Positions 6,301 through 42,318 of a stretch of DNA of 43,602 bases are shown in pieces; position 1 is the stretch's first letter; every line of letters starts with the position of its first letter. The notes beneath the pieces are model-generated. The model had not been told where the DNA came from. It saw only the letters and a list, made by a program, of their open reading frames with translations, and searched no databases. The DNA lies in IMG/VR virus record IMGVR_UViG_2541047812_000007, positions 1-43,602 of that record, one strand, 5' to 3'. The position numbers were made by a program, and so were the translations under genes. This stretch comes from a virus (Duplodnaviria; Heunggongvirae; Uroviricota; Caudoviricetes).

Positions 6301-6506
6301 GGAAGAACCACAGAACCGCCACTATAAGTGCCCGCCCCAGTTACCGTATAACCGGTATCCAGAACCAATTCTGTTACGTTTCCGTTCAGGTCAGACACCT
6401 GAACAACCAGGTCTGATTTTCTGAAAATTCGAAAAGTATACGGAAACGATGTCGTAACGCCGTTACCGGTGTATTCGTTGTGGTCAACTTCGGTTGAGAC
6501 CGTCAT
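3387..6506 (-). CDS. Tailspike/tail fibre: T7 gp17-like N-terminal domain, sialidase-like Asp-box domain, C-terminal intramolecular chaperone-like domain
   Basis: N-terminus resembles T7 tail-fibre N-domain (YTGNGVTTSFPYTF..RKSDLVV); two Asp-boxes SGDDGKTW (nt ~5523-5546) and SSDLGTSW (nt ~4758-4781); last ~160 aa resemble the autoproteolytic chaperone domain of endosialidase-type tailspikes. SD GGAG before ATG. Confidence 0.8.
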   Translation of the reverse strand: MTVSTEVDHNEYTGNGVTTSFPYTFRIFRKSDLVVQVSDLNGNVTELVLDTGYTVTGAGTYSGGSVVLPSPLATGWRITIDRVLDVVQETDLRNQGKFFPEVHEDAFDYLTMLIQQCFGWFRRALMKPSLLAKYYDAKQNKISNLADPSFEQDAVNNRSMRNYVDAAIAGVVGGFGWFIQYGSGAVYRTFQDKMRDAISPKDFGAVGDGINDDSTAISACLEASSPGYKIDGLGLTFKVSTLPDVSRFKNARFLFERIPGQPLFYASEDFIQGELFKITDTPWYNAWTQDKTFVYDNVIYAPFMAGDRHGVNNLHVAWVRSGDDGKTWTTPEWLTDLHENYPTVNYHCMSMGVVRNRLFAVIETRTVRGNKLQVAELWDRPMSRSLRVYGGITKAANQQVAYIRITDHGLFAGDFVNFSNSGVTGVTGNMTVTTVIDKNTFTVTTQNTQDVDQNNEGRYWSFGTSFHSSPWRKTSLGTIPSFVDGSTPVTEIHSFATISDNSFAVGYHNGDIGPRELGILYFSDAFGSPGSFVRRRIPAEYEANASEPCVKYYDGILYLTTRGTLSTQPGSSLHRSSDLGTSWNSLRFPNNVHHSNLPFAKVGDELIIFGSERAFGEWEGGEPDNRYAGNYPRTFMTRVNVNEWSLDNVEWVNVTDQIYQGGIVNSAVGVGSVCIKDNWLYYIFGGEDFLNPWSIGDNNRKYPYVHDGHPADLYCFRVKIKQEEFVSRDFVYGATPNRTLPTFMSTSGVRTVPVPVDFTDDVAVQSLTVHAGTSGQVRAEVKLEGNYAIIAKKVPSDDVTAQRLIVSGGETTSSADGAMITLHGSGSSTPRRAVYNALEHLFENGDVKPYLDNVNALGGPGNRFSTVYLGSNPVVTSDGTLKTEPVSPDEALLDAWGDVRYIAYKWLNAVAIKGEEGARIHHGVIAQQLRDVLISHGLMEEESTTCRYAFLCYDDYPAVYDDVITGQREMPLTDNDGSIIVDEDDNPVMVMEDIIERVEITPAGSRWGVRPDLLFYIEAAWQRREMDKIKERIQSLEER

Positions 6507-6610
6507 GTTAAATCTCCAGATAGTCGCAGCACCCGTTGCGCCGCATATCTGGTTATTCTATTACCTGAAAAACCACATATGGATAGAAAGACTGTAAATA
6601 CGAATAGATA

Positions 6611-6625
6611 TTACCTTTCAGGTAA
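6611..6625. promoter_or_regulatory. Palindromic operator-like site TTACCTTTCAGGTAA
   Basis: Perfect TTACC-N5-GGTAA inverted repeat; identical 15-mer recurs at 26205-26219. Confidence 0.4.
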
Positions 6626-6662
6626 TTTGCAAAACGTGCTGGATAGCAAACAAATTATTTGC

Positions 6663-6682
6663 TACTGTATAAATATACAGTT
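6663..6682. promoter_or_regulatory. LexA (SOS) box
   Basis: TACTGTATAAATATACAGTT, a CTGT-N8-ACAG palindrome two mismatches from the LexA consensus, about 20 nt upstream of the ATG at 6702. Confidence 0.7.
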
Positions 6683-6701
6683 ATTGCATGGAGAAGATAA
6701 G

Positions 6702-6959
6702 ATGCAGCAGTATCACTATCCACTGGAAGACGGATTTACCGAAAGGATTCACACGCCGGGAGGCGTCAGGTCACTGGTGGAGGGATCGCACTTGATGAAA
6801 TTACTCCGGGATCTCGATAAGGATGGATTTAATGTCGATGGCCCACTTGCCGAACTGACTGCACTGATTAACTACGTCACCAGCTCACAGATGTCTATGC
6901 AGGATCTGCAAACACATCTCGACTATTGTGCCGAACAATTACGAAAACAAACCAGATAA
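6702..6959 (+). CDS. Small (85 aa) antirepressor-domain protein, predicted SOS-inducible
   Basis: SD GGAGAAG 5 nt before ATG; protein aligns with the shared C-terminal domain of the three larger antirepressors (HSPSGV / HTPGGV, DIQTHAEY / DLQTHLDY). Start moved from ORF-track 6579 to 6702. Confidence 0.6.
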   Translation: MQQYHYPLEDGFTERIHTPGGVRSLVEGSHLMKLLRDLDKDGFNVDGPLAELTALINYVTSSQMSMQDLQTHLDYCAEQLRKQTR

Positions 6960-6962
6960 GAT

Positions 6963-6991
6963 TTGAAATTACCAATAGGAGTGCTTATATT
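6963..6991 (+). promoter_or_regulatory. Sigma70-like promoter TTGAAA-17bp-TATATT
   Basis: Near-consensus -35 and -10 with 17-bp spacer; predicted start site falls inside the operator-like palindrome at 6991-7005. Confidence 0.5.
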
Positions 6992-7005
6992 TACCTTTGC
7001 GGTAA
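6991..7005. promoter_or_regulatory. Palindromic operator-like site TTACCTTTGCGGTAA
   Basis: TTACC-N5-GGTAA inverted repeat overlapping the promoter -10 and start site. Confidence 0.4.
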
Positions 7006-7118
7006 ATTTACATCGCACTCCTCTTGTGCCATAGTAATCGGGCACTGGCAAAATCCAGTGCCGGGATTGGCGTCCCGGATTACTAAAAGGCGCATTCACC
7101 GCGCAAGCGGTTTTTTTA
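6998..7118 (+). ncRNA. Candidate small RNA or terminated leader (about 120 nt)
   Basis: Runs from the predicted promoter to an intrinsic terminator (ACCGC-gcaa-GCGGT plus T7 at 7098-7118); contains nested GC-rich hairpins; the overlapping ORFs have no SD and poor context. Confidence 0.3.
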
Positions 7119-7274
7119 TGCGTATAGCACGGCCACATTCGTATTATGGTGGGCTGTGTGGGGGCACCGAAAGGTGCGCCGGGTCCTTTTAGCCGGTTAC
7201 GCCAACCCTGCACAGTTCACCACCAACCGATTGGCGTCGGTAGTGGTGATTAACCAGACTAAAAGGTAACCACT

Positions 7275-7970
7275 ATGACAGCTACAAAAAGCACGTCCAT
7301 TTTTTCTTTCGAATCCCAAGCCGATATACGGGTAATCGTCATTAATGGTGAGCCATGGTTTATCGCTTCAGATGTTTGTCGGGCTATAGGCATAGCAAAC
7401 CATCGAGATGCTGTTCGAAAACTTGATGATGATGAGAAGGGCGTCGCTTCAACCGACACCCCTGGCGGTGAGCAAGAATCGATCATCATCTCCGAGTCAG
7501 GCCTCTACACACTGATCCTCCGCTGCCGCGACGCAGTGACACCAGGCACTATCCCCTACCGCTTTCGTAAATGGGTTACAGGTGAGGTTCTTCCTCAGAT
7601 CCGCCGCACCGGAAGTTACATTAAAAACTCGCTCCCGCAGGAAGAACGCATAAAGATGGTTGCCGACCAGGTAGCCAGCGCCACAGCATCAGCAGTGATG
7701 CAGGCAATGAAGGTAGAGAACAAAACCTACAGCGCCCCGCTGAAGCCCGGCTACCGCAGCCTGATTCACTCGCCGTCTGGTGTTCTCGGCCTGACGGAGA
7801 ACTCACTGCTGATGAATCTGCTGAACCAGTTACAGGACGACGGGCACGACGTATCGGGCGCGGCGGCGGAGCTGACCACCATGTTCTGCTACATCGTCGG
7901 TGTGAGCAAATGCCTGCGTGATATCCAGACCCACGCGGAGTACATCAACGACAAGGCAGGGTTCTTCTGA
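7275..7970 (+). CDS. Antirepressor, Bro-N N-terminal domain plus shared antirepressor C-terminal domain
   Basis: N-terminus has the Bro-N pattern (IRVIVINGEPWFIASDVCRAIG); C-terminal ~80 aa nearly identical to the C-termini of 9088-10026 and 41668-42318. Confidence 0.8.
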   Translation: MTATKSTSIFSFESQADIRVIVINGEPWFIASDVCRAIGIANHRDAVRKLDDDEKGVASTDTPGGEQESIIISESGLYTLILRCRDAVTPGTIPYRFRKWVTGEVLPQIRRTGSYIKNSLPQEERIKMVADQVASATASAVMQAMKVENKTYSAPLKPGYRSLIHSPSGVLGLTENSLLMNLLNQLQDDGHDVSGAAAELTTMFCYIVGVSKCLRDIQTHAEYINDKAGFF

Positions 7971-9063: not shown

Positions 9064-9318
9064 GCACGTCCCTGTGCCGCCGTTCTGTCAGAAGAACCCT
9101 GCCTTGTCGTTGATGTATTCCGCGTGCGTCTGGATATCACGCAGGCATTTGCTCACACCAACGATGTAGCAGAACATGGTGGTCAGCTCCGCCGCCGCGC
9201 CCGATACATCGTGCCCGTCTTCCTGTAACTGGTTCAGCAGATTCATCAGCAGTGAGTTCTCCGTCAGGCCGAGAACACCCGACGGCGAATGAATCAGACT
9301 GCGGTAGCCTGGCTTCAA
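9064..9318 (-). repeat. Copy 2 (inverted) of the ~260-bp antirepressor 3' repeat
   Basis: Reverse complement aligns with 7729-7993 and 42073-42341 with few substitutions. Confidence 0.8.
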
Positions 9319-10026
9319 TGGATAACCATAACATTTTGTCTGTGTTTTAATTGCCTCACGAAGCGCATCTAACATCTTGACTGCCACTTCATCATTCTCT
9401 GATGCAGATCCAGCAGGGAGATACTCCCCTTCAAGCGGAACCCGAGCAACAAGAGACAACGCTTCGGCAAATTGATCTTCACCAATTTCTTTGTACGAAC
9501 AGCCAAAATGAGATTTCAGTGACGACCACATGGTGATCATCGCCTTAGCCTGTTTTTCTTTTGGCAGAGACTGACCGCGACTCATGACGAGTTGTTTAAT
9601 GGCTTCCTGCTGTTCAGTTGTTATTTTACCCGGCAACGCCTTTTTAGCTTTGCGTGGGTTAACCACATGGCCTTTAGTCCAGTACTCGTAGAGCACATCG
9701 TCACACTCTTCCTGATACTGGATTACCTTGTCGCGGATTTCAGGGCGGACTTTGTTAGGGCTGATGCTGTTCAACCAAGCTGCCAATTTTCGTAAAGCCA
9801 TACAAATCATGGCTTGCACCCCACCGGCAGAAGGTATGGTGATTTCCACCATACCCTTCGAGAAGCGTTGAGAAATCTTCTTATGTTGAGATTTCCAGTC
9901 TAGCCCCATTCCCTCAACGATAGGTTTCATTGGGGTATACGGTTCGCCGTTGTGATTGACAACATAAAGCTCTGCGCCGTGGAATGGCACGTTGATAGTA
10001 GATACTGCTGTTGCTATACTCGTCAT
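9088..10026 (-). CDS. Antirepressor (ant-like), distinct N-terminal domain plus shared C-terminal domain
   Basis: 312 aa; SD AGGA before ATG; sits downstream of an Arc-like gene as in P22 immI; C-terminus shared with the other antirepressors. Confidence 0.8.
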   Translation of the reverse strand: MTSIATAVSTINVPFHGAELYVVNHNGEPYTPMKPIVEGMGLDWKSQHKKISQRFSKGMVEITIPSAGGVQAMICMALRKLAAWLNSISPNKVRPEIRDKVIQYQEECDDVLYEYWTKGHVVNPRKAKKALPGKITTEQQEAIKQLVMSRGQSLPKEKQAKAMITMWSSLKSHFGCSYKEIGEDQFAEALSLVARVPLEGEYLPAGSASENDEVAVKMLDALREAIKTQTKCYGYPLKPGYRSLIHSPSGVLGLTENSLLMNLLNQLQEDGHDVSGAAAELTTMFCYIVGVSKCLRDIQTHAEYINDKAGFF

Positions 10027-10098
10027 GTCGTTAATTCCTATACGTAGTTTTACGATACTGAAGCCCTGACGGTCTGGCCACCGTGGGGCTTCGCTGTT

Positions 10099-10266
10099 TT
10101 ATGCCACGCTATTCTTCTCACCAGTGAGTCCATACACTTTCCTCAGCTGATAGATAATCTCTGTATTGAACTTTCGGCATTCTTTTTCGCCATTTCTTTC
10201 AATAGCTAACTTCACATCGTCCGGAAAACGAACTCGTCGTTGACACATCTCTTTTGCTTTTTGCAT
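10099..10266 (-). CDS. Arc-like ribbon-helix-helix repressor
   Basis: 55 aa from internal ATG with SD AAGGAG 7 nt upstream; resembles P22 Arc (RFPDDVKLAIERNG...NTEIIYQLRK). Confidence 0.6.
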   Translation of the reverse strand: MQKAKEMCQRRVRFPDDVKLAIERNGEKECRKFNTEIIYQLRKVYGLTGEKNSVA

Positions 10267-10280
10267 TTCATATCTCCTTA

Positions 10281-10295
10281 GCCCCACCGTGGGGC
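10281..10295. promoter_or_regulatory. Palindrome GCCCCACCGTGGGGC upstream of the arc-like gene
   Basis: Inverted repeat next to the arc SD; core CCACCGTGG recurs at 10078-10086 and 29359-29367. Confidence 0.35.
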
Positions 10296-10386
10296 AAAAT
10301 AATTGTCACACCGTGCGTCATTGATGTCAAGCACACGGTGAGGCATACTTCAATCATTGCAAGTAACTCAATATTTGGTGAAGAAC

Positions 10387-10818
10387 ATGAGCAGAGAAGA
10401 TCCACAACTAAGGATCAGACTTCCCGTCGAAGTAAAAGAAAAAATAGAAATTTCTGCAAAAGCCAATAAGCGATCAATGAACGCTGAAATAGTACAACGT
10501 CTTGACACCAGCTTTCTGAAAGATATTCATGAAGATGACGTAATTTCTGCTTATGAAGCAAAAATCATTGCAAACAATGCACGACATGAAATATCAAATA
10601 TTATTTTCAAAAGAACCTTTAATGAAATTAATAAGAAAATAACACTTGGACATACAAGTTTTTATATAAACCTTAATGACCTTGAACTGGAATCACTTGC
10701 AGATAATGATTACCAGATCATCTTTGAAAAAACATTTAATAGGCTCAATGAACTAGGTTACATCATCTGTGAAAACTCATGGGATGCAGATGGTTTTGGA
10801 ATTGAAATACCTGAATAG
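10387..10818 (+). CDS. Mnt-like ribbon-helix-helix regulator with a ~95-aa C-terminal extension
   Basis: N-terminus resembles P22 Mnt/Arc (LRIRLPVEVKEKIEISAKANKRSMNAEIVQRL); divergent from arc/ant; AT-rich C-terminal domain of unknown family. Confidence 0.6.
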   Translation: MSREDPQLRIRLPVEVKEKIEISAKANKRSMNAEIVQRLDTSFLKDIHEDDVISAYEAKIIANNARHEISNIIFKRTFNEINKKITLGHTSFYINLNDLELESLADNDYQIIFEKTFNRLNELGYIICENSWDADGFGIEIPE

Positions 10819-26541: not shown

Positions 26542-26618
26542 GTGGCATTAGCTCAGTTGGACAGAGCAACCGCCTTCTAAGCGGTTGGTCGCAGGTTCGA
26601 ATCCTGCATGCCACGCCA
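26542..26618 (+). tRNA. tRNA-Arg, anticodon UCU (reads AGA)
   Basis: 77-nt cloverleaf folded by hand: acceptor GTGGCAT/ATGCCAC, D-arm GCTC/GAGC, anticodon stem ACCGC/GCGGT with loop CTTCTAA, T-arm GCAGG-TTCGAAT-CCTGC, discriminator G, encoded CCA. Confidence 0.9.
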
Positions 26619-33509: not shown

Positions 33510-34286
33510 TTACTTGATAAATCCTGCCGCCTTTCCCCGCCTGTATTCCTCCATCAGCCACTGCGCCGGTGTTATTCCCCCTAGGGTGGCGGCGTTAGGC
33601 ATGCACCCGAAACTTCGCCCTGGTGGATGGTAAACGTCTCTCCCTGTGTCCGGAGGTGTACTCATGGGCTCTGGCTTTGCCTGTATGCTGATCACCGGAT
33701 CGGGTATCTGCTGTCCGGAAGCCACCTTTTTCGCCCAATCATCGAGCAGCCTGCGCGCGTGTTTCTCAACCTCACTCTCGCTAAGCTGGCGCTGATACAT
33801 TGCACGACGGGTATCACATACGACCCAGTACATAACCGGATGCCGCCACGGGAATCTTTCGGGACCACCAGGATATAAACTTTTTTCCTTGCTGTACCGG
33901 TGAAACTCCGCCATCACATCGTCAATGGTGACGCCAAGAACCATCTTGCTGTCTTTGCACCACTTGATGAATTGCCCTGGCGACGGCCAGAACGGAGATT
34001 CACTGGCGCGGGCGTGGCGCATACCAGCGTTAACCTGTTCCATTGTAGTGATCCCATTCTCCAGAAACGCAAGCATCCATTGCTTACGGAATTCATTAAG
34101 TTTGTTCTGCTCACTTATGGTCGAAACGCTTGCAGGAAATGCAGCCTGTAACTGGACAAATAGTTCATTGAAAATTCTAGCAACCTGCTCCTTTTTGCCA
34201 TTGCTGTCACGCCGCTCTTCATGCACAGCAACACCATGCTCACGTAAGCGATCGTACTCATTGAGAAGTTCTGGAGTTGATTTCAT
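33510..34286 (-). CDS. Replication protein P-like (helicase loader)
   Basis: Blocks RKQWMLAFLENGITTMEQVNAGMRHAR and FPAS match lambda P as recalled. Confidence 0.8.
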   Translation of the reverse strand: MKSTPELLNEYDRLREHGVAVHEERRDSNGKKEQVARIFNELFVQLQAAFPASVSTISEQNKLNEFRKQWMLAFLENGITTMEQVNAGMRHARASESPFWPSPGQFIKWCKDSKMVLGVTIDDVMAEFHRYSKEKSLYPGGPERFPWRHPVMYWVVCDTRRAMYQRQLSESEVEKHARRLLDDWAKKVASGQQIPDPVISIQAKPEPMSTPPDTGRDVYHPPGRSFGCMPNAATLGGITPAQWLMEEYRRGKAAGFIK

Positions 34287-35814: not shown

Positions 35815-36399
35815 ATGAAAAGTATCCAGGACGTCCGCAGGCAAAATCTCAACGACTTGATCGACCGTGAATTCAATGGTGTTCAGACGCGGATGGCAGA
35901 AAAACTTGGAACTCAGGCAAATCTGGTAAACCGCTGGGCTCTTGGCAAGAAGGTTATCGGCGACCAGGTTGCGCGAAAAATTGAAGCTGCCGCCAATAAA
36001 CCCCGTAACTGGCTTGATATCGATCGCTCGCTTTCTCAGGAAGGTTTTCAGCCTGTCGGCCCAAGCGACATTGGTCAGCTGGCGGCTCACAACCTGGAAC
36101 GCTGGATGAGCGAAAGCCGCGACCTTTCAACACAGGGAAAACTTCACCGCGCATCCGGCGTCGCCCAGGTGACAATCAGCCGCCTGTTAAACAATGAGGT
36201 CAGCGTTTCCATTTCCACCCTGGAGAATGTTGCATCCGCATTCGGGCGTCACGGATATGAACTACTGATTCACCCGCACGACCCTGCGACTATCAACTAT
36301 GACCGCTCACGCTACGCATTGTTACCCGAAACCGAGAAAGCAAAGATCGAAAGTTACATTGAATTTGTCATCAACCAGAACGAAAAAAGCAAACAATAA
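35815..36399 (+). CDS. Prophage repressor with two HTH motifs and no peptidase domain
   Basis: 194 aa; two XRE-type HTH segments; no S24-like autocleavage motifs seen in the C-terminal part. Confidence 0.7.
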   Translation: MKSIQDVRRQNLNDLIDREFNGVQTRMAEKLGTQANLVNRWALGKKVIGDQVARKIEAAANKPRNWLDIDRSLSQEGFQPVGPSDIGQLAAHNLERWMSESRDLSTQGKLHRASGVAQVTISRLLNNEVSVSISTLENVASAFGRHGYELLIHPHDPATINYDRSRYALLPETEKAKIESYIEFVINQNEKSKQ

Positions 36400-36456: not shown

Positions 36457-36533
36457 TTACCTTATGGGTAATTTTTTTAACTCATATCTATTGACATCAA
36501 ACCAAATACGCATAATCATTACCTCAACGGTAA
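36457..36533 (+). promoter_or_regulatory. Early promoter region with two operator-like palindromes (PL-like)
   Basis: TTACCTTATGGGTAA (36457-36471), TTGACA at 36491-36496, CATAAT near 36511, TTACCTCAACGGTAA (36519-36533). Confidence 0.45.
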
Positions 36534-41343: not shown

Positions 41344-41667
41344 AATCACGCCTGACGAATCGCGATTATCTCGCTATTGGTATTGCAGAGATTGCTGGAC
41401 TCAATGGCGCATGATTTGACAATGCCGCCAGAGCTATCGCATACTGACCGCACTAGAAAACAAACAGCGGTCATCCGCACCCGATAGCTTTGCGGCTTTT
41501 TTATGCCTGCAATCTGGCATAGTCACATCCGTACAAAGGTCGGGTGGAGAGGCGTAATACAACACCCGAAAGGGGAATATGCCCGGAGCTACTGTTTGTG
41601 CTCTAGTTGACACCCGATCACCAGCTACTAACTGGTTTTCGTAACTAAAAACAAACAGGAGGTCATC

Positions 41668-42318
41668 ATGACCAGTCAACTCATCCCCGTATTCAACGGC
41701 ACTATATCCAACGAAACCGCTCTTCTCGTTAATGCCCGTGATTTACACACTTTCCTCGATGTGGGTAAGCGATTTGCTTCGTGGATTGTCGAACGAATTG
41801 CTGAATATGGTTTCGTTGAAAATCAAGACTTTATGATTATTTCCCAAGTTCGGGAAAAAATAGGCAGAGGCCGTCCTGCAAAAGACTACCACCTCACCCT
41901 CGATACAGCCAAAGAGCTGGCGATGGTCGAGCGTAATGAAAAAGGTCGTCAGGTACGACGCTACTTCATTGAATGCGAGAAACGTTTAAGACAACAAGAA
42001 ACAAAAGTGGAGAAGGTCTTGTCAGGCTTCATGCCCGCCATTATGGAGGCGATCAAGCTGGAAGACAAAAAAGAATACAGTGCCCCACTGAAGCCCGGCT
42101 ACCGCAGCCTGATTCACTCGCCGTCTGGTGTTCTCGGCCTGACGGAGCGCTCACTGCTGATGAATCTGCTGAACCAGTTACAGGACGACGGGCACGACGT
42201 ATCGGGCGCGGCGGCGGAGCTGACCACCATGTTCTGCTACATCGTCGGTGTGAGCAAATGCCTGCGTGATATCCAGACTCACGCGGAGTACATCAACGAC
42301 AAGGCAGGGTTCTTCTGA
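41668..42318 (+). CDS. Antirepressor, AntA-like N-terminal domain plus shared C-terminal domain
   Basis: Strong SD AGGAGG; N-terminal pattern DLHTFLDVGKRFASWIVERIAEYGFVENQDF; C-terminal ~80 aa shared with 7275-7970 and 9088-10026. Confidence 0.8.
   Translation: MTSQLIPVFNGTISNETALLVNARDLHTFLDVGKRFASWIVERIAEYGFVENQDFMIISQVREKIGRGRPAKDYHLTLDTAKELAMVERNEKGRQVRRYFIECEKRLRQQETKVEKVLSGFMPAIMEAIKLEDKKEYSAPLKPGYRSLIHSPSGVLGLTERSLLMNLLNQLQDDGHDVSGAAAELTTMFCYIVGVSKCLRDIQTHAEYINDKAGFF

Follow-up and report, generated by a model that had tools for sequence, protein, structure and literature searches.

An IsrK-type RNA and a C4-type antisense RNA precede the Bro-N antirepressor gene of an epsilon15/phiV10-like prophage

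What kind of element occupies the structured DNA in front of the antirepressor gene of this prophage, and how might it act on that gene? The window analyzed here is the whole 43,602-nt stretch of a Caudoviricetes record (IMGVR_UViG_2541047812_000007). An earlier note on this DNA had read positions 6963-7274 as a promoter-to-terminator unit with nested hairpins, resembling either a stand-alone regulatory RNA such as P22 sar or P1 c4, or a leader controlled by antitermination in the style of pR'-tR', and had proposed a covariance-model search. The features that it described were all present, and the search resolved them into two curated Rfam families, isrK (77.9 bits) and C4 (77.7 bits), both scoring above the gathering scores. 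The region is a phage RNA control module, in which a terminated IsrK RNA is followed by a C4-type antisense RNA; together they would gate translation of the Bro-N antirepressor. The parts of the module are listed below in window coordinates.

6963..6991, + strand: upstream promoter P1, -35 TTGAAA (6963-6968), 17-nt spacer, -10 TATATT (6986-6991), predicted start near 6998
6991..7005, no strand assigned: operator palindrome TTACCTTTGCGGTAA, TTACC-N5-GGTAA, extended arms 6986-6995 / 7001-7010
7007..7035, + strand: family-conserved promoter P2, -35 TTTACA (7007-7012), TG (7027-7028), -10 CATAGT (7030-7035), predicted start 7042
7042..7117, + strand: IsrK-type short RNA, Rfam RF01394
7042-7061, + strand: IsrK hairpin 1, loop GCAAAAUC
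7062-7077, + strand: IsrK hairpin 2, presenting b1 UUGGCGU (7067-7073)
7083-7090, + strand: a1 CUAAAAGG, within IsrK
7098-7117, + strand: intrinsic terminator, stem 7098-7111, then U-run to 7117
7142..7227, + strand: C4-type antisense RNA, Rfam RF01695
7147-7163 / 7206-7222, + strand: base-paired closing stem of C4
7164-7177, + strand: C4 hairpin A
7178-7197, + strand: C4 hairpin B, loop holding a' CCUUUUAG (7185-7192)
7199-7205, + strand: b' ACGCCAA, single-stranded joint of C4
7226..7241, + strand: b2 hairpin, loop presenting b2 UUGGCGU (7231-7237)
7242..7274, + strand: hairpin before the start codon, arms 7242-7247 and 7269-7274
7259-7266, + strand: a2 CUAAAAGG, in the loop of the start-codon hairpin, including the Shine-Dalgarno AAGG
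7275..7970, + strand: Bro-N-domain antirepressor gene, 231 aa (Pfam Bro-N, 76.5 bits)

The isrK model was matched over its full length (model positions 1-77 at 7042-7117; gathering score 50, E = 3.8e-15). An overlapping match to RF03163 c4-a1b1 reached 45.1 bits, just below its gathering score of 46.7. The hallmarks of isrK are present: a pair of hairpins at the 5' end, their conserved loops reading GCAAAAUC and AUUGG, a Rho-independent terminator, and a predicted promoter of its own (TTTACA-17-CATAGT) that puts the predicted start at the first hairpin. In 94 sequences, hairpin 1 was 99.8% paired with compensatory changes at 5 of 7 pairs, and hairpin 2 was 98.5% paired. The reported ~120 nt of nested hairpins proved to be a stable structure, 6998-7118 folding at -51.6 kcal/mol (z = -6.0); the fold of 7042-7118 gave z = -2.3. 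The reported terminator was also found, with an ACCGC/GCGGT stem followed by seven T, and its T-run is invariant among 95 aligned homologues. The predicted ~120-nt transcript needs amendment, as that length would arise only from the group-specific upstream promoter; the family-conserved form is ~76 nt and starts at 7042. The U-tailed terminator after an A/U-rich single strand is the sole hint in the sequence that IsrK may bind Hfq.

The ~150 nt of structured leader said to lie downstream of the terminator is real, and it is the C4 antisense RNA (gathering score 45, E = 1e-13; z = -4.7 for the fold of 7142-7227). It consists of a long closing stem with two internal hairpins. Pairing in the closing stem stood at 99.2%, compensatory changes being seen at 11 of its 17 pairs; in hairpin A all five pairs were compensatory. 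Behind the closing stem, which is tRNA-like, comes a nearly invariant CCACC/CCA; the 3' tail of C4 is CCA. RNase P is involved in excision of the ~77-nt c4 RNA from its precursor. By analogy to P1, the C4 RNA of this phage (about 7147-7225) is probably excised by RNase P as well. Citron and Schuster (1992) describe P1 c4 as a processed 77-base RNA.

C4 carries complements to two downstream sites, a' pairing with a2 and b' with b2, and exact copies of both sites (a1/b1) sit inside IsrK. The a2 site lies on the Shine-Dalgarno sequence, 8 nt upstream of the ATG at 7275, and is an exact direct repeat of a1 over 9 nt (7082-7090). The b copies form an identical 10-nt repeat, GATTGGCGTC, at 7065-7074 (b1) and 7229-7238 (b2). 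The duplex energies of a' and b' with their targets were -34.0 and -26.9 kcal/mol, respectively, compared with shuffled means of -16.6 and -15.0, and none of 500 shuffles was as good. Co-folding of C4 with IsrK or with the leader gave a negligible gain, since contacts between loops are pseudoknots and lie beyond the reach of the method; the pairing was judged instead by co-variation and by comparing duplex energies with those of shuffles. Full-length duplex prediction was uninformative, as it ignores intramolecular structure.

Family matches, complementarities and co-variation over ~100 loci are established by this analysis. The b'-b1 pairs were 100% paired across loci and the b'-b2 pairs 99.4%; at three b specificity positions both sides had changed in 12 to 32 sequences, or 12 to 31 for b'-b2 alone, and never with more than one mismatch. 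For a', the reliable co-variation test was an alignment-free comparison within and between loci. Complementarity of at least 7 nt between a' and a2 was found within 103 of 115 loci, against 6.6% in the between-locus controls. Column-based counts for a'-a1 and a'-a2 were low (61-74%), an effect of the variable length and poor alignment of the a loops. The a1 copy is less conserved than a2 (82 vs. 103 of 115 loci). The inner four pairs of the b2 hairpin stem were 89% paired and the start-codon hairpin at 7242-7274 was 86% paired. An alternative helix between 7243-7249 and the C4 3' arm (7217-7223) was 94.5% paired, with all 7 pairs compensatory. Across loci there are ~50 distinct a specificities and about 7 b specificities. 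These look like an immunity code that keeps the antirepressors of co-resident prophages separately controlled.

We examined the promoters and the operator. The upstream promoter reported in the earlier note matches 10 of 12 consensus positions, and its predicted start is indeed covered by the TTACC-N5-GGTAA palindrome. Five promoter-like sites were found in the surrounding region and 5.3 were expected from shuffles; hexamers alone therefore prove nothing. Conservation of P1 is confined to loci of the epsilon15/phiV10-like group, and its -10 abuts the operator exactly as at the strong phage promoter TTGACA-17-AATCAT (36491-36519). The palindrome occurs 13 times in the window, compared with 0.75 expected (13 was reached in 0 of 100 shuffles); of 115 homologous loci, 55 have it at the position corresponding to 6991-7005. 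Sites of this type flank the HTH repressor gene at 35815-36399, two of them lying between that gene and a divergent cro-like ORF. Judged from this distribution, TTACC-N5-GGTAA is most likely the operator of the prophage HTH repressor, its presumed binding site. The second promoter (7007-7035) is absent from the earlier note. A match of at least 8/12 at the P2 position, with 5-7 nt between the end of the -10 and hairpin 1, was detected in 99 of 115 loci, compared with 2-6 of 115 at control offsets. The predicted P2 start, although P2 is a consensus match only, is position 1 of the isrK model; numbering from that position also recovers the mutant pairs published for Gifsy-1. The operator centre lies near -44 relative to P2, where a bound repressor could block, ignore or even stimulate this promoter.

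The region is 98.6% DNA-identical to phage vB_EcoP_ZX5, and the match overlaps a ZX5 gene annotated "anti-repressor." It was reported previously that the near-identical ZX5 protein promotes lytic growth, and that overexpression of ZX5 ORF4 lowered prophage titres ~1000-fold (PMC9782041). In other loci, the downstream genes encode Bro-N, ORF6N, Rha, P22_AR_N or KilA-N domains. The 1.6-kb region was matched in ~1000 of 5426 complete E. coli genomes, and the RNAs are unmarked in both the RefSeq record and the phiV10 record. Two unannotated RNA genes and a probable operator are added to a very common E. coli prophage type.

The best explanation of the locus, which we hold with good confidence, is an immI-type antisense module silencing the prophage Bro-N antirepressor. 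The module has been described before and is no new kind of system; its architecture is that of P1/P7 immI and of Gifsy-1 isrK-orf45-anrP, without an icd-like intermediate ORF. Apart from icd, the order of parts in P1/P7 immI (a1b1 - c4 - a2b2 - icd - ant1/2) is the same as here, with the same Rfam family and the same kind of target, an antirepressor. P7 served as the reference for immI. As in our phage, where the operator is a presumed one, a repressor operator and an upstream promoter come first, and the -10 of a second promoter ends 6 nt before the first hairpin. Of the two hairpins that follow, the second displays b1 in its loop; a1 and a terminator-like hairpin rich in U come next, and after the c4 fold lie b2 and then a2, the latter on the ribosome-binding site of the gene behind it. 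The suggested likeness to P1 c4 was apt, and it is one of homology, but the roles of the parts had been swapped: the c4 homologue is the downstream "leader," whereas the promoter-to-terminator unit is IsrK/a1b1, which holds copies of the antisense target and is not itself the antisense RNA.

Several features set the two systems apart. In P1/P7 the ORF blocked by c4 is the small icd, on whose translation ant depends; at our locus the Shine-Dalgarno on which a2 sits is that of the antirepressor gene itself. No icd-like small ORF was found between the C4 target and the antirepressor gene at this locus, and a 62-81-aa ORF occupies the icd-like position in 27 of the other loci. The icd-like ORF is a P1/P7-specific feature, and the RNA family has no need for one. 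The Bro-N protein is unrelated to Ant1/2. The operator here is a 15-bp palindrome next to the -35 of the second promoter, and that of P7 is an asymmetric C1 site ~40 bp upstream. P1/P7 is a plasmid prophage, whereas the host phage here is an integrated epsilon15/phiV10-like podovirus. If the proposed reading is right, epsilon15-like prophages guard antirepressor synthesis in the same way as P1.

The Salmonella Gifsy-1 isrK-orf45-anrP locus also places isrK and C4, in this order, before an antirepressor gene, and our scan found isrK, c4-a1b1 (48.1 bits) and C4 upstream of anrP. The b specificity is identical (UUGGCGU / ACGCCAA), a2 again lies on the antirepressor Shine-Dalgarno, and Gifsy-1 yields IsrK both as a short terminated RNA and in a read-through form, as is predicted for our phage. 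The a specificity differs (CGGUGAU vs. CCUUUUAG in the window), Gifsy-1 has a single promoter without the TTACC-N5-GGTAA operator where this locus has two promoters and the operator, and the downstream protein is of the ORF6N type rather than Bro-N. Compensatory mutants published for this locus, G28A/C162U and G31A/C159U (Hershko-Shalev et al., 2016, PMC4825925), map exactly onto b1-b'; the proven pairs G28-C162 and G31-C159 correspond to G7069-C7203 and G7072-C7200 of the window. In that study IsrK supplied in trans raised anrP translation >100-fold, which the authors explained by translation of a small ORF overlapping C4 and not by relief of an antisense block (PMC4825925). Neither c4 nor P1 nor RNase P is mentioned in the paper, which treats the C4 region as a coding ORF (PMC4825925); mapping its mutants onto b1-b' joins two bodies of work that were unconnected there.

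The APSE phages of Hamiltonella carry isrK, c4 and, immediately downstream, a Bro-N gene in the order found here (PMC7313666; LR794147). Complementarity of a'/b' to the region upstream of the BRO gene was seen by Rouil et al. (2020, PMC7313666). Phage and host differ from ours, and these authors took IsrK for an unrelated virulence-linked sRNA and did not report its a1/b1 (PMC7313666).

What we infer about the working of the module concerns which promoters are used, binding of the repressor, processing by RNase P, and how strongly and in which direction translation is affected. Transcription would start from one or both of the two tandem promoters, near 6998 and at 7042; the upstream start is overlapped by the presumed prophage-repressor operator, and the downstream promoter is the one conserved wherever the RNA pair occurs. 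The majority of transcripts are expected to end at the intrinsic terminator (7098-7117), giving the ~76-nt IsrK-type RNA with a1 and b1. Read-through RNA would include the tRNA-like C4, whose loop a' is proposed to pair with a2 on the antirepressor Shine-Dalgarno and whose joint b' would pair with b2 in the loop of the small hairpin. These two pairings would block ribosome entry, so that no antirepressor is made. Since IsrK has exact copies of both target sites, it can bind C4, either in cis on the read-through RNA or in trans as the short RNA. Such binding would lift the block, matching the behavior of IsrK measured in Gifsy-1. It counts in favor of the model that IsrK and STnc1160 are both abundant in Gifsy-1 lysogens. 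It counts against the model that a great excess of IsrK over C4 would let the decoy defeat repression.

We put forward more tentatively, as a possibility that we doubt somewhat more than we favor, that the short IsrK is a dedicated target mimic (sponge) of C4, and that decoy, antisense and target from one unit form a threshold switch. The ratio of decoy to antisense would then depend on the read-through fraction and on which promoter is used, the repressor-controlled or the conserved one; in the RNA extended at its 5' end by use of the upstream promoter, a1 is predicted to be masked. If true, the sponge reading would join the P1 c4 and Gifsy-1 IsrK models in one mechanism and recast the Gifsy-1 "orf45" as C4.

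The earlier note had found no ribosome-binding sites for the ORFs overlapping this region, and we likewise found no convincing Shine-Dalgarno in any of them. The ORFs at 7146-7253, 7156-7269 and 6926-7192, and the minus-strand ORF at 6923-7213, were rejected as genes because the length of the ORF from AUG 7146 is unconserved (3 to 178 aa in 115 homologous loci) and the region changes by compensatory pairs.

The Gifsy-1 model taken literally would give this small ORF a part to play. IsrK in trans would open the ribosome-binding site of the 7146 ORF, whose translation would activate the antirepressor by coupling; the read-through RNA would be silent by its own fold, and the C4-like fold would be mRNA structure and not a separate antisense RNA. 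In Gifsy-1, orf45 start-codon and stop-codon mutants reduce anrP activation (PMC4825925), but the closing stem of C4 is altered at its base by the start-codon mutations as well. Of 115 loci, 112 keep the AUG (7146) at the 5' edge of C4, yet the ORF behind it has no conserved length or frame; in the window it has no Shine-Dalgarno, and 21 nt separate its end (7253) from the ATG. Alternative helices form a chain that would suit such coupling: the C4 3' arm can pair with 7243-7249, and this segment in turn with 7269-7274 beside the AUG. The region nevertheless evolves as RNA, by compensatory base-pair changes, and coupling offers no explanation for the co-variation between the a' loop and the ribosome-binding site of the gene downstream. 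We consider this account unlikely.

Less probable still is control of the type seen in phage P4, in which C4 would pair with nascent a1/b1 and shift the stopping of polymerase at 7098-7117, so that the antirepressor is controlled mainly by attenuation. The P4 CI RNA (seqA/seqC) is likewise a processed tRNA-like leader RNA that pairs with one upstream and one downstream site; it acts by premature transcription termination on replication genes, whereas the downstream target here is a ribosome-binding site. The a1 site lies just 7 nt upstream of the terminator stem, and the Gifsy-1 authors noted the likeness of IsrK to P4 seqA and raised this possibility (PMC4825925). IsrK in trans raised a transcriptional fusion 8-fold in Gifsy-1, but the translational effect was 139-fold, and constitutive STnc1160 failed to prevent IsrK-mediated toxicity (PMC4825925). 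No co-varying alternative antiterminator helix was found at this locus, and attenuation leaves the position of a2 on the Shine-Dalgarno unexplained.

A pR'-tR' style leader, with the terminator overridden by a phage antiterminator protein, fits the close succession of promoter and intrinsic terminator ahead of a gene and the Q-like gene adjoining the Gifsy-1 locus, but we give it almost no credence: the flanking genes examined (tailspike, 85-aa ORF, Bro-N gene) have no Q-like Pfam match, the terminator is followed by a conserved antisense RNA and an antirepressor gene and not by late genes, the element occurs in many unrelated phage backgrounds and always before C4 and an antirepressor-type gene, and in Gifsy-1 Q responds to the locus and does not regulate it.

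The likeness to P22 sar suggested in the earlier note goes no further than function. Sar is likewise a small RNA limiting antirepressor synthesis, but it is cis-encoded on the opposite strand, whereas the RNAs of the antisense module are on the strand of their target and pair via two short loops. With E allowed to rise to 10, the sar model (RF00262) still found nothing in 6400-7500. A genuine sar match was detected elsewhere in the window, at 10028-10095. Two further antirepressor genes with the same C-terminal domain adjoin RNA-family matches, sar and sRNA-Xcc1, and a loop of the sRNA-Xcc1 match is complementary to the ribosome-binding site of the neighboring gene.

Rfam scanning of the window gave full-length matches to two RNA families within the element (6963-7274): isrK at 7042-7117 (77.9 bits; gathering score, 50) and C4 antisense RNA at 7142-7227 (77.7 bits; gathering score, 45). 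With the threshold relaxed, a c4-a1b1 match overlapping isrK was obtained as well, at 7029-7081 (45.1 bits, just short of the gathering score of 46.7). Judged by these matches, the promoter-to-terminator unit is identified as an IsrK / a1b1 RNA, and the "structured leader" behind it as a c4 homologue. The covariance-model search named in the earlier note thus gave isrK and C4 matches well above the curated thresholds. That note had read the element as an sRNA like P1 c4 or as a leader; the kinship with c4 is borne out by the Rfam C4 match, with the roles reassigned, c4 being the leader and the terminated unit IsrK / a1b1. The module is carried by an epsilon15/phiV10-like (Uetakevirus) prophage whose tailspike is an endosialidase. 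Over the element region, identity is 98% to an E. coli APEC O1 prophage and 95% to phiV10; of 5426 complete E. coli genomes, about 1000 have a match to the region. The RNAs are unannotated in the RefSeq record and in the phiV10 record, the latter marking only the terminator.

The physical features described earlier were recovered. The promoter-like site TTGAAA-17-TATATT (6963-6991) agrees with the consensus at 10 of 12 positions, and the palindrome TTACC-N5-GGTAA (6991-7005) spans its predicted start. The hairpin-rich stretch 6998-7118 has a folding energy of -51.6 kcal/mol (z = -6.0), the intrinsic terminator has its stem at 7098-7111 followed by seven T, and a second structured stretch leads up to the Bro-N-domain gene, whose ATG is at 7275. 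Promoter hexamers alone occur at chance level in the surrounding region (5 sites vs. 5.3 expected) and are insufficient by themselves; the unit is real on other evidence.

The target segments (a1, b1 inside IsrK; a2, b2 downstream) and the exposed C4 segments (a', b') are arranged as follows:
7065-7074 and 7229-7238: b1 and b2, GATTGGCGTC, an exact direct repeat flanking C4
7082-7090 and 7258-7266: a1 and a2, ACTAAAAGG, an exact direct repeat flanking C4
7185-7192: a', CCUUUUAG, in the loop of the second internal C4 hairpin, complementary to a1/a2
7199-7205: b', ACGCCAA, the single-stranded joint ahead of the C4 closing stem, complementary to b1/b2

Small-hairpin loops hold b1 and b2, one each. 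Segment a2, also in a hairpin loop, contains the Shine-Dalgarno AAGG with the ATG 8 nt downstream, and the 3' arm of its hairpin runs up to the start codon. For duplexes between the C4 loop region and each of the two target regions, the energies were -34.0 and -26.9 kcal/mol, compared with shuffled means of -16.6 and -15.0 kcal/mol, and none of 500 shuffles equalled the C4-target duplexes.

We scanned IMG/VR for exact patterns with the conserved IsrK core and found at least 120 loci; after extraction and duplicate removal, 115 distinct sequences from the matches listed were aligned. An alignment-free test scored perfect matches of at least 7 nt within a locus against a between-locus control.

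Complementarity of C4 segments to their targets (loci among the matches listed; between-locus control)
a'-a2: 103 of 115; 6.6%
a'-a1: 82 of 115; 4.6%
b'-b1: 113 of 115; about 49%
b'-b2: 112 of 115; about 49%

The matches listed contain about 50 distinct cores for a and about 7 for b. Column-based pair counts were made on a 95-sequence alignment, in which b'-b1 is 100% and b'-b2 99.4% paired; at three variable b positions both sides changed in 12 to 32 sequences, with at most one mismatch. IsrK hairpin 1 is 99.8% paired (5/7 pairs compensatory) and the C4 closing stem 99.2% (11/17 compensatory), all five pairs of C4 hairpin A are compensatory, and the terminator T-run is invariant. Complementarity within loci together with column co-variation is strong evidence that the three site sets pair with the C4 loops and that both RNAs function as RNAs. 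The C4 3' arm (7217-7223) can also pair with 7243-7249 (94.5% paired, 7/7 pairs compensatory), and 7242-7247 with 7269-7274 beside the AUG (86% paired), forming a chain of mutually exclusive helices. This chain may serve to present a2 in a loop after C4 excision, or may be an alternative fold of the unprocessed transcript.

The IsrK hairpin 1 loop CAAAAUC (7049-7055; columns 8-14 of A1, the alignment of homologous loci) has no complement in the window's C4 or leader. Its invariance is partly forced, as the collection scan demanded GCAAAATC; the loop is also capitalised in the Rfam consensus of both isrK and c4-a1b1.

A sigma-70-like site is conserved across the family: 99 of 115 loci among the matches listed have one whose -10 stops 5-7 nt short of hairpin 1 (control offsets, 2-6 of 115), and these loci are drawn from many phage backgrounds. 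In the window it reads:
7007-7035: TTTACA-17-CATAGT with TG just 5', predicted start 7042

Position 7042 is also position 1 of the isrK model and, taken as the origin of numbering, it reproduces the mutant positions published for Gifsy-1. The promoter proposed earlier is confined to the epsilon15-like subgroup, where it is accompanied by the palindrome, whose position is constant (55 of 115 loci among the matches listed).

TTACC-N5-GGTAA has 13 matches in the window vs. 0.75 expected, at:
6611, 6991, 8041, 26205, 29356, 29374, 33396, 33458, 35360, 35697, 35745, 36457 and 36519

Copies flank the HTH repressor gene 35815-36399 on both sides and adjoin a divergent cro-like ORF. Several abut -10-like hexamers, and one abuts the -10 of the strong promoter TTGACA-17-AATCAT (36491-36519) in a geometry identical to that at 6991. 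We infer that the palindrome is the prophage repressor operator and that the repressor controls the upstream promoter. The 13 copies resemble a regulon of dispersed operators under the HTH repressor, comparable to the many C1 operators of P1. In a departure from the P7 layout, the presumed operator in the element ends 2 bp from the -35 of the conserved promoter and has its centre near -44, a position from which the repressor could block this promoter, leave it unaffected or even stimulate it.

An outer inverted repeat, CAATAGGAGTGC / GCACTCCTCTTG (6973-6984 and 7015-7026, 92% complementary), brackets the operator, and its arms vary between related loci in matching fashion (e.g., ATGCAAT / ATTGCAT). 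The left arm is upstream of both predicted starts, so the repeat may act in DNA or in upstream-gene read-through transcripts. In a transcript begun at the upstream promoter, the 5' extension (7025-7041) is predicted to pair with 7078-7093, masking the a1 region (z = -6.0 for 6998-7118); variants in related loci (UGUGCC/GGCACA, UGCGCC/GGCGCA and the wobble UGUGCC/GGCGCA) hint at such a helix.

The P1 operon is under C1 repression, and full ant repression requires C4 antisense RNA too. The layout in P7 is as in the element: a C1 operator with an upstream promoter comes first, then a second promoter, TTGACC-17-TATAGT, with a -10 that stops 6 nt short of the first hairpin. Unlike P1/P7, the module has no icd-like intermediate ORF; a 62-81-aa ORF occupies the icd-like place in 27 other loci among the matches listed.

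Ahead of anrP, the Gifsy-1 locus matched isrK (79.3 bits), c4-a1b1 (48.1 bits, above threshold) and C4 (69.0 bits), and a2 likewise lies on the Shine-Dalgarno of the antirepressor gene. The region published as 'orf45' / STnc1160 (34131-34214, minus strand, of the Gifsy-1 sequence L124) is a full-length Rfam C4 match, and the first "orf45" AUG is the AUG at C4's 5' edge. When numbering begins at the first nucleotide of IsrK, the published compensatory pairs G28A/C162U and G31A/C159U map exactly to b1-b'. The Gifsy-1 study reported >100-fold more anrP translation with IsrK in trans and described STnc1160 as a stable RNA processed from the read-through transcript; c4, P1 and RNase P are unmentioned there (PMC4825925). 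In Gifsy-1 lysogens, both IsrK and STnc1160 are plentiful under every condition tested. In APSE phages, isrK, c4 and the adjacent BRO-N gene were annotated already, and the a'/b' complementarity to sequence upstream of the BRO gene was noted (PMC7313666). The module is thus an already described kind of system, made of two curated RNA families, with similar instances annotated before. Phage vB_EcoP_ZX5 has 98.6% DNA identity to the element region, the match overlapping a gene annotated "anti-repressor"; prophage titres fell from 10^9 to 10^6 when ZX5 ORF4 was overexpressed (PMC9782041).

Most likely, the module holds the Bro-N antirepressor untranslated. Read-through transcripts would be the source of C4, which by binding a2 and b2 would occlude the ribosome-binding site; the terminated IsrK RNA, bearing both target sites, would compete for C4, and the repressor operator would add transcriptional control. 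Only tentatively do we propose that IsrK is a dedicated C4 sponge, a role that would unify the P1 and Gifsy-1 models. Downstream genes in other loci encode Bro-N, ORF6N, Rha, P22_AR_N or KilA-N domains. A conserved coding role for the small ORF from AUG 7146 is argued against by its variable length (3 to 178 aa across loci among the matches listed).

The prophage has at least three antirepressor genes. Features at the other two loci are:
9088-10026, minus strand: ant, an antirepressor-type gene, P22_AR_N domain
10028-10095: sar RNA match adjoining the P22_AR_N gene (44.8 bits against a gathering score of 43)
10099-10287, minus strand: small ORF, Arc-like by eye, no Pfam match
10357-10818: Arc/Mnt-family gene (Pfam Arc)
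41538-41627: sRNA-Xcc1 match upstream of the AntA gene (64.8 bits against a gathering score of 53)
41668-42318: third antirepressor-type gene (Pfam AntA domain)

The 9088-10818 stretch is a P22-type immI block. The sRNA-Xcc1 loop CUGUUUGU (41592-41599) is complementary to ACAAACAG (41651-41658) on the AntA gene's Shine-Dalgarno and to an upstream copy (41460-41467); this copy belongs to a short unit that has both a promoter-like site and a terminator-like hairpin. Codons 3-5 contain, at 41675-41681, the pairing partner of a second segment, AGUUGAC (41605-41611). The locus (41417-42318) shares the decoy-antisense-target layout of isrK/C4, which points to sRNA-Xcc1 as a C4-like controller of antirepressor genes; a limited literature search found no paper stating so. 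Two of the antirepressor genes are thus preceded by a C4-type or C4-like RNA with a loop complementary to the ribosome-binding site, and the third adjoins the sar match.

The three gene products begin with unrelated N-terminal domains and end in nearly the same C-terminal domain: the Bro-N and P22-type proteins are 83% identical over 101 aa, and the C-terminal ~80 aa of the AntA-type protein match the Bro-N product in type. The 85-aa ORF 6702-6959 just upstream of the element is a free-standing homologue of this domain (42% identity, E = 2e-15) with its own operator copy at 6611-6625. This phage's repressor may be contacted through the shared domain. A tRNA gene also lies within the prophage, at 26542-26615 (Rfam tRNA, 73.3 bits).
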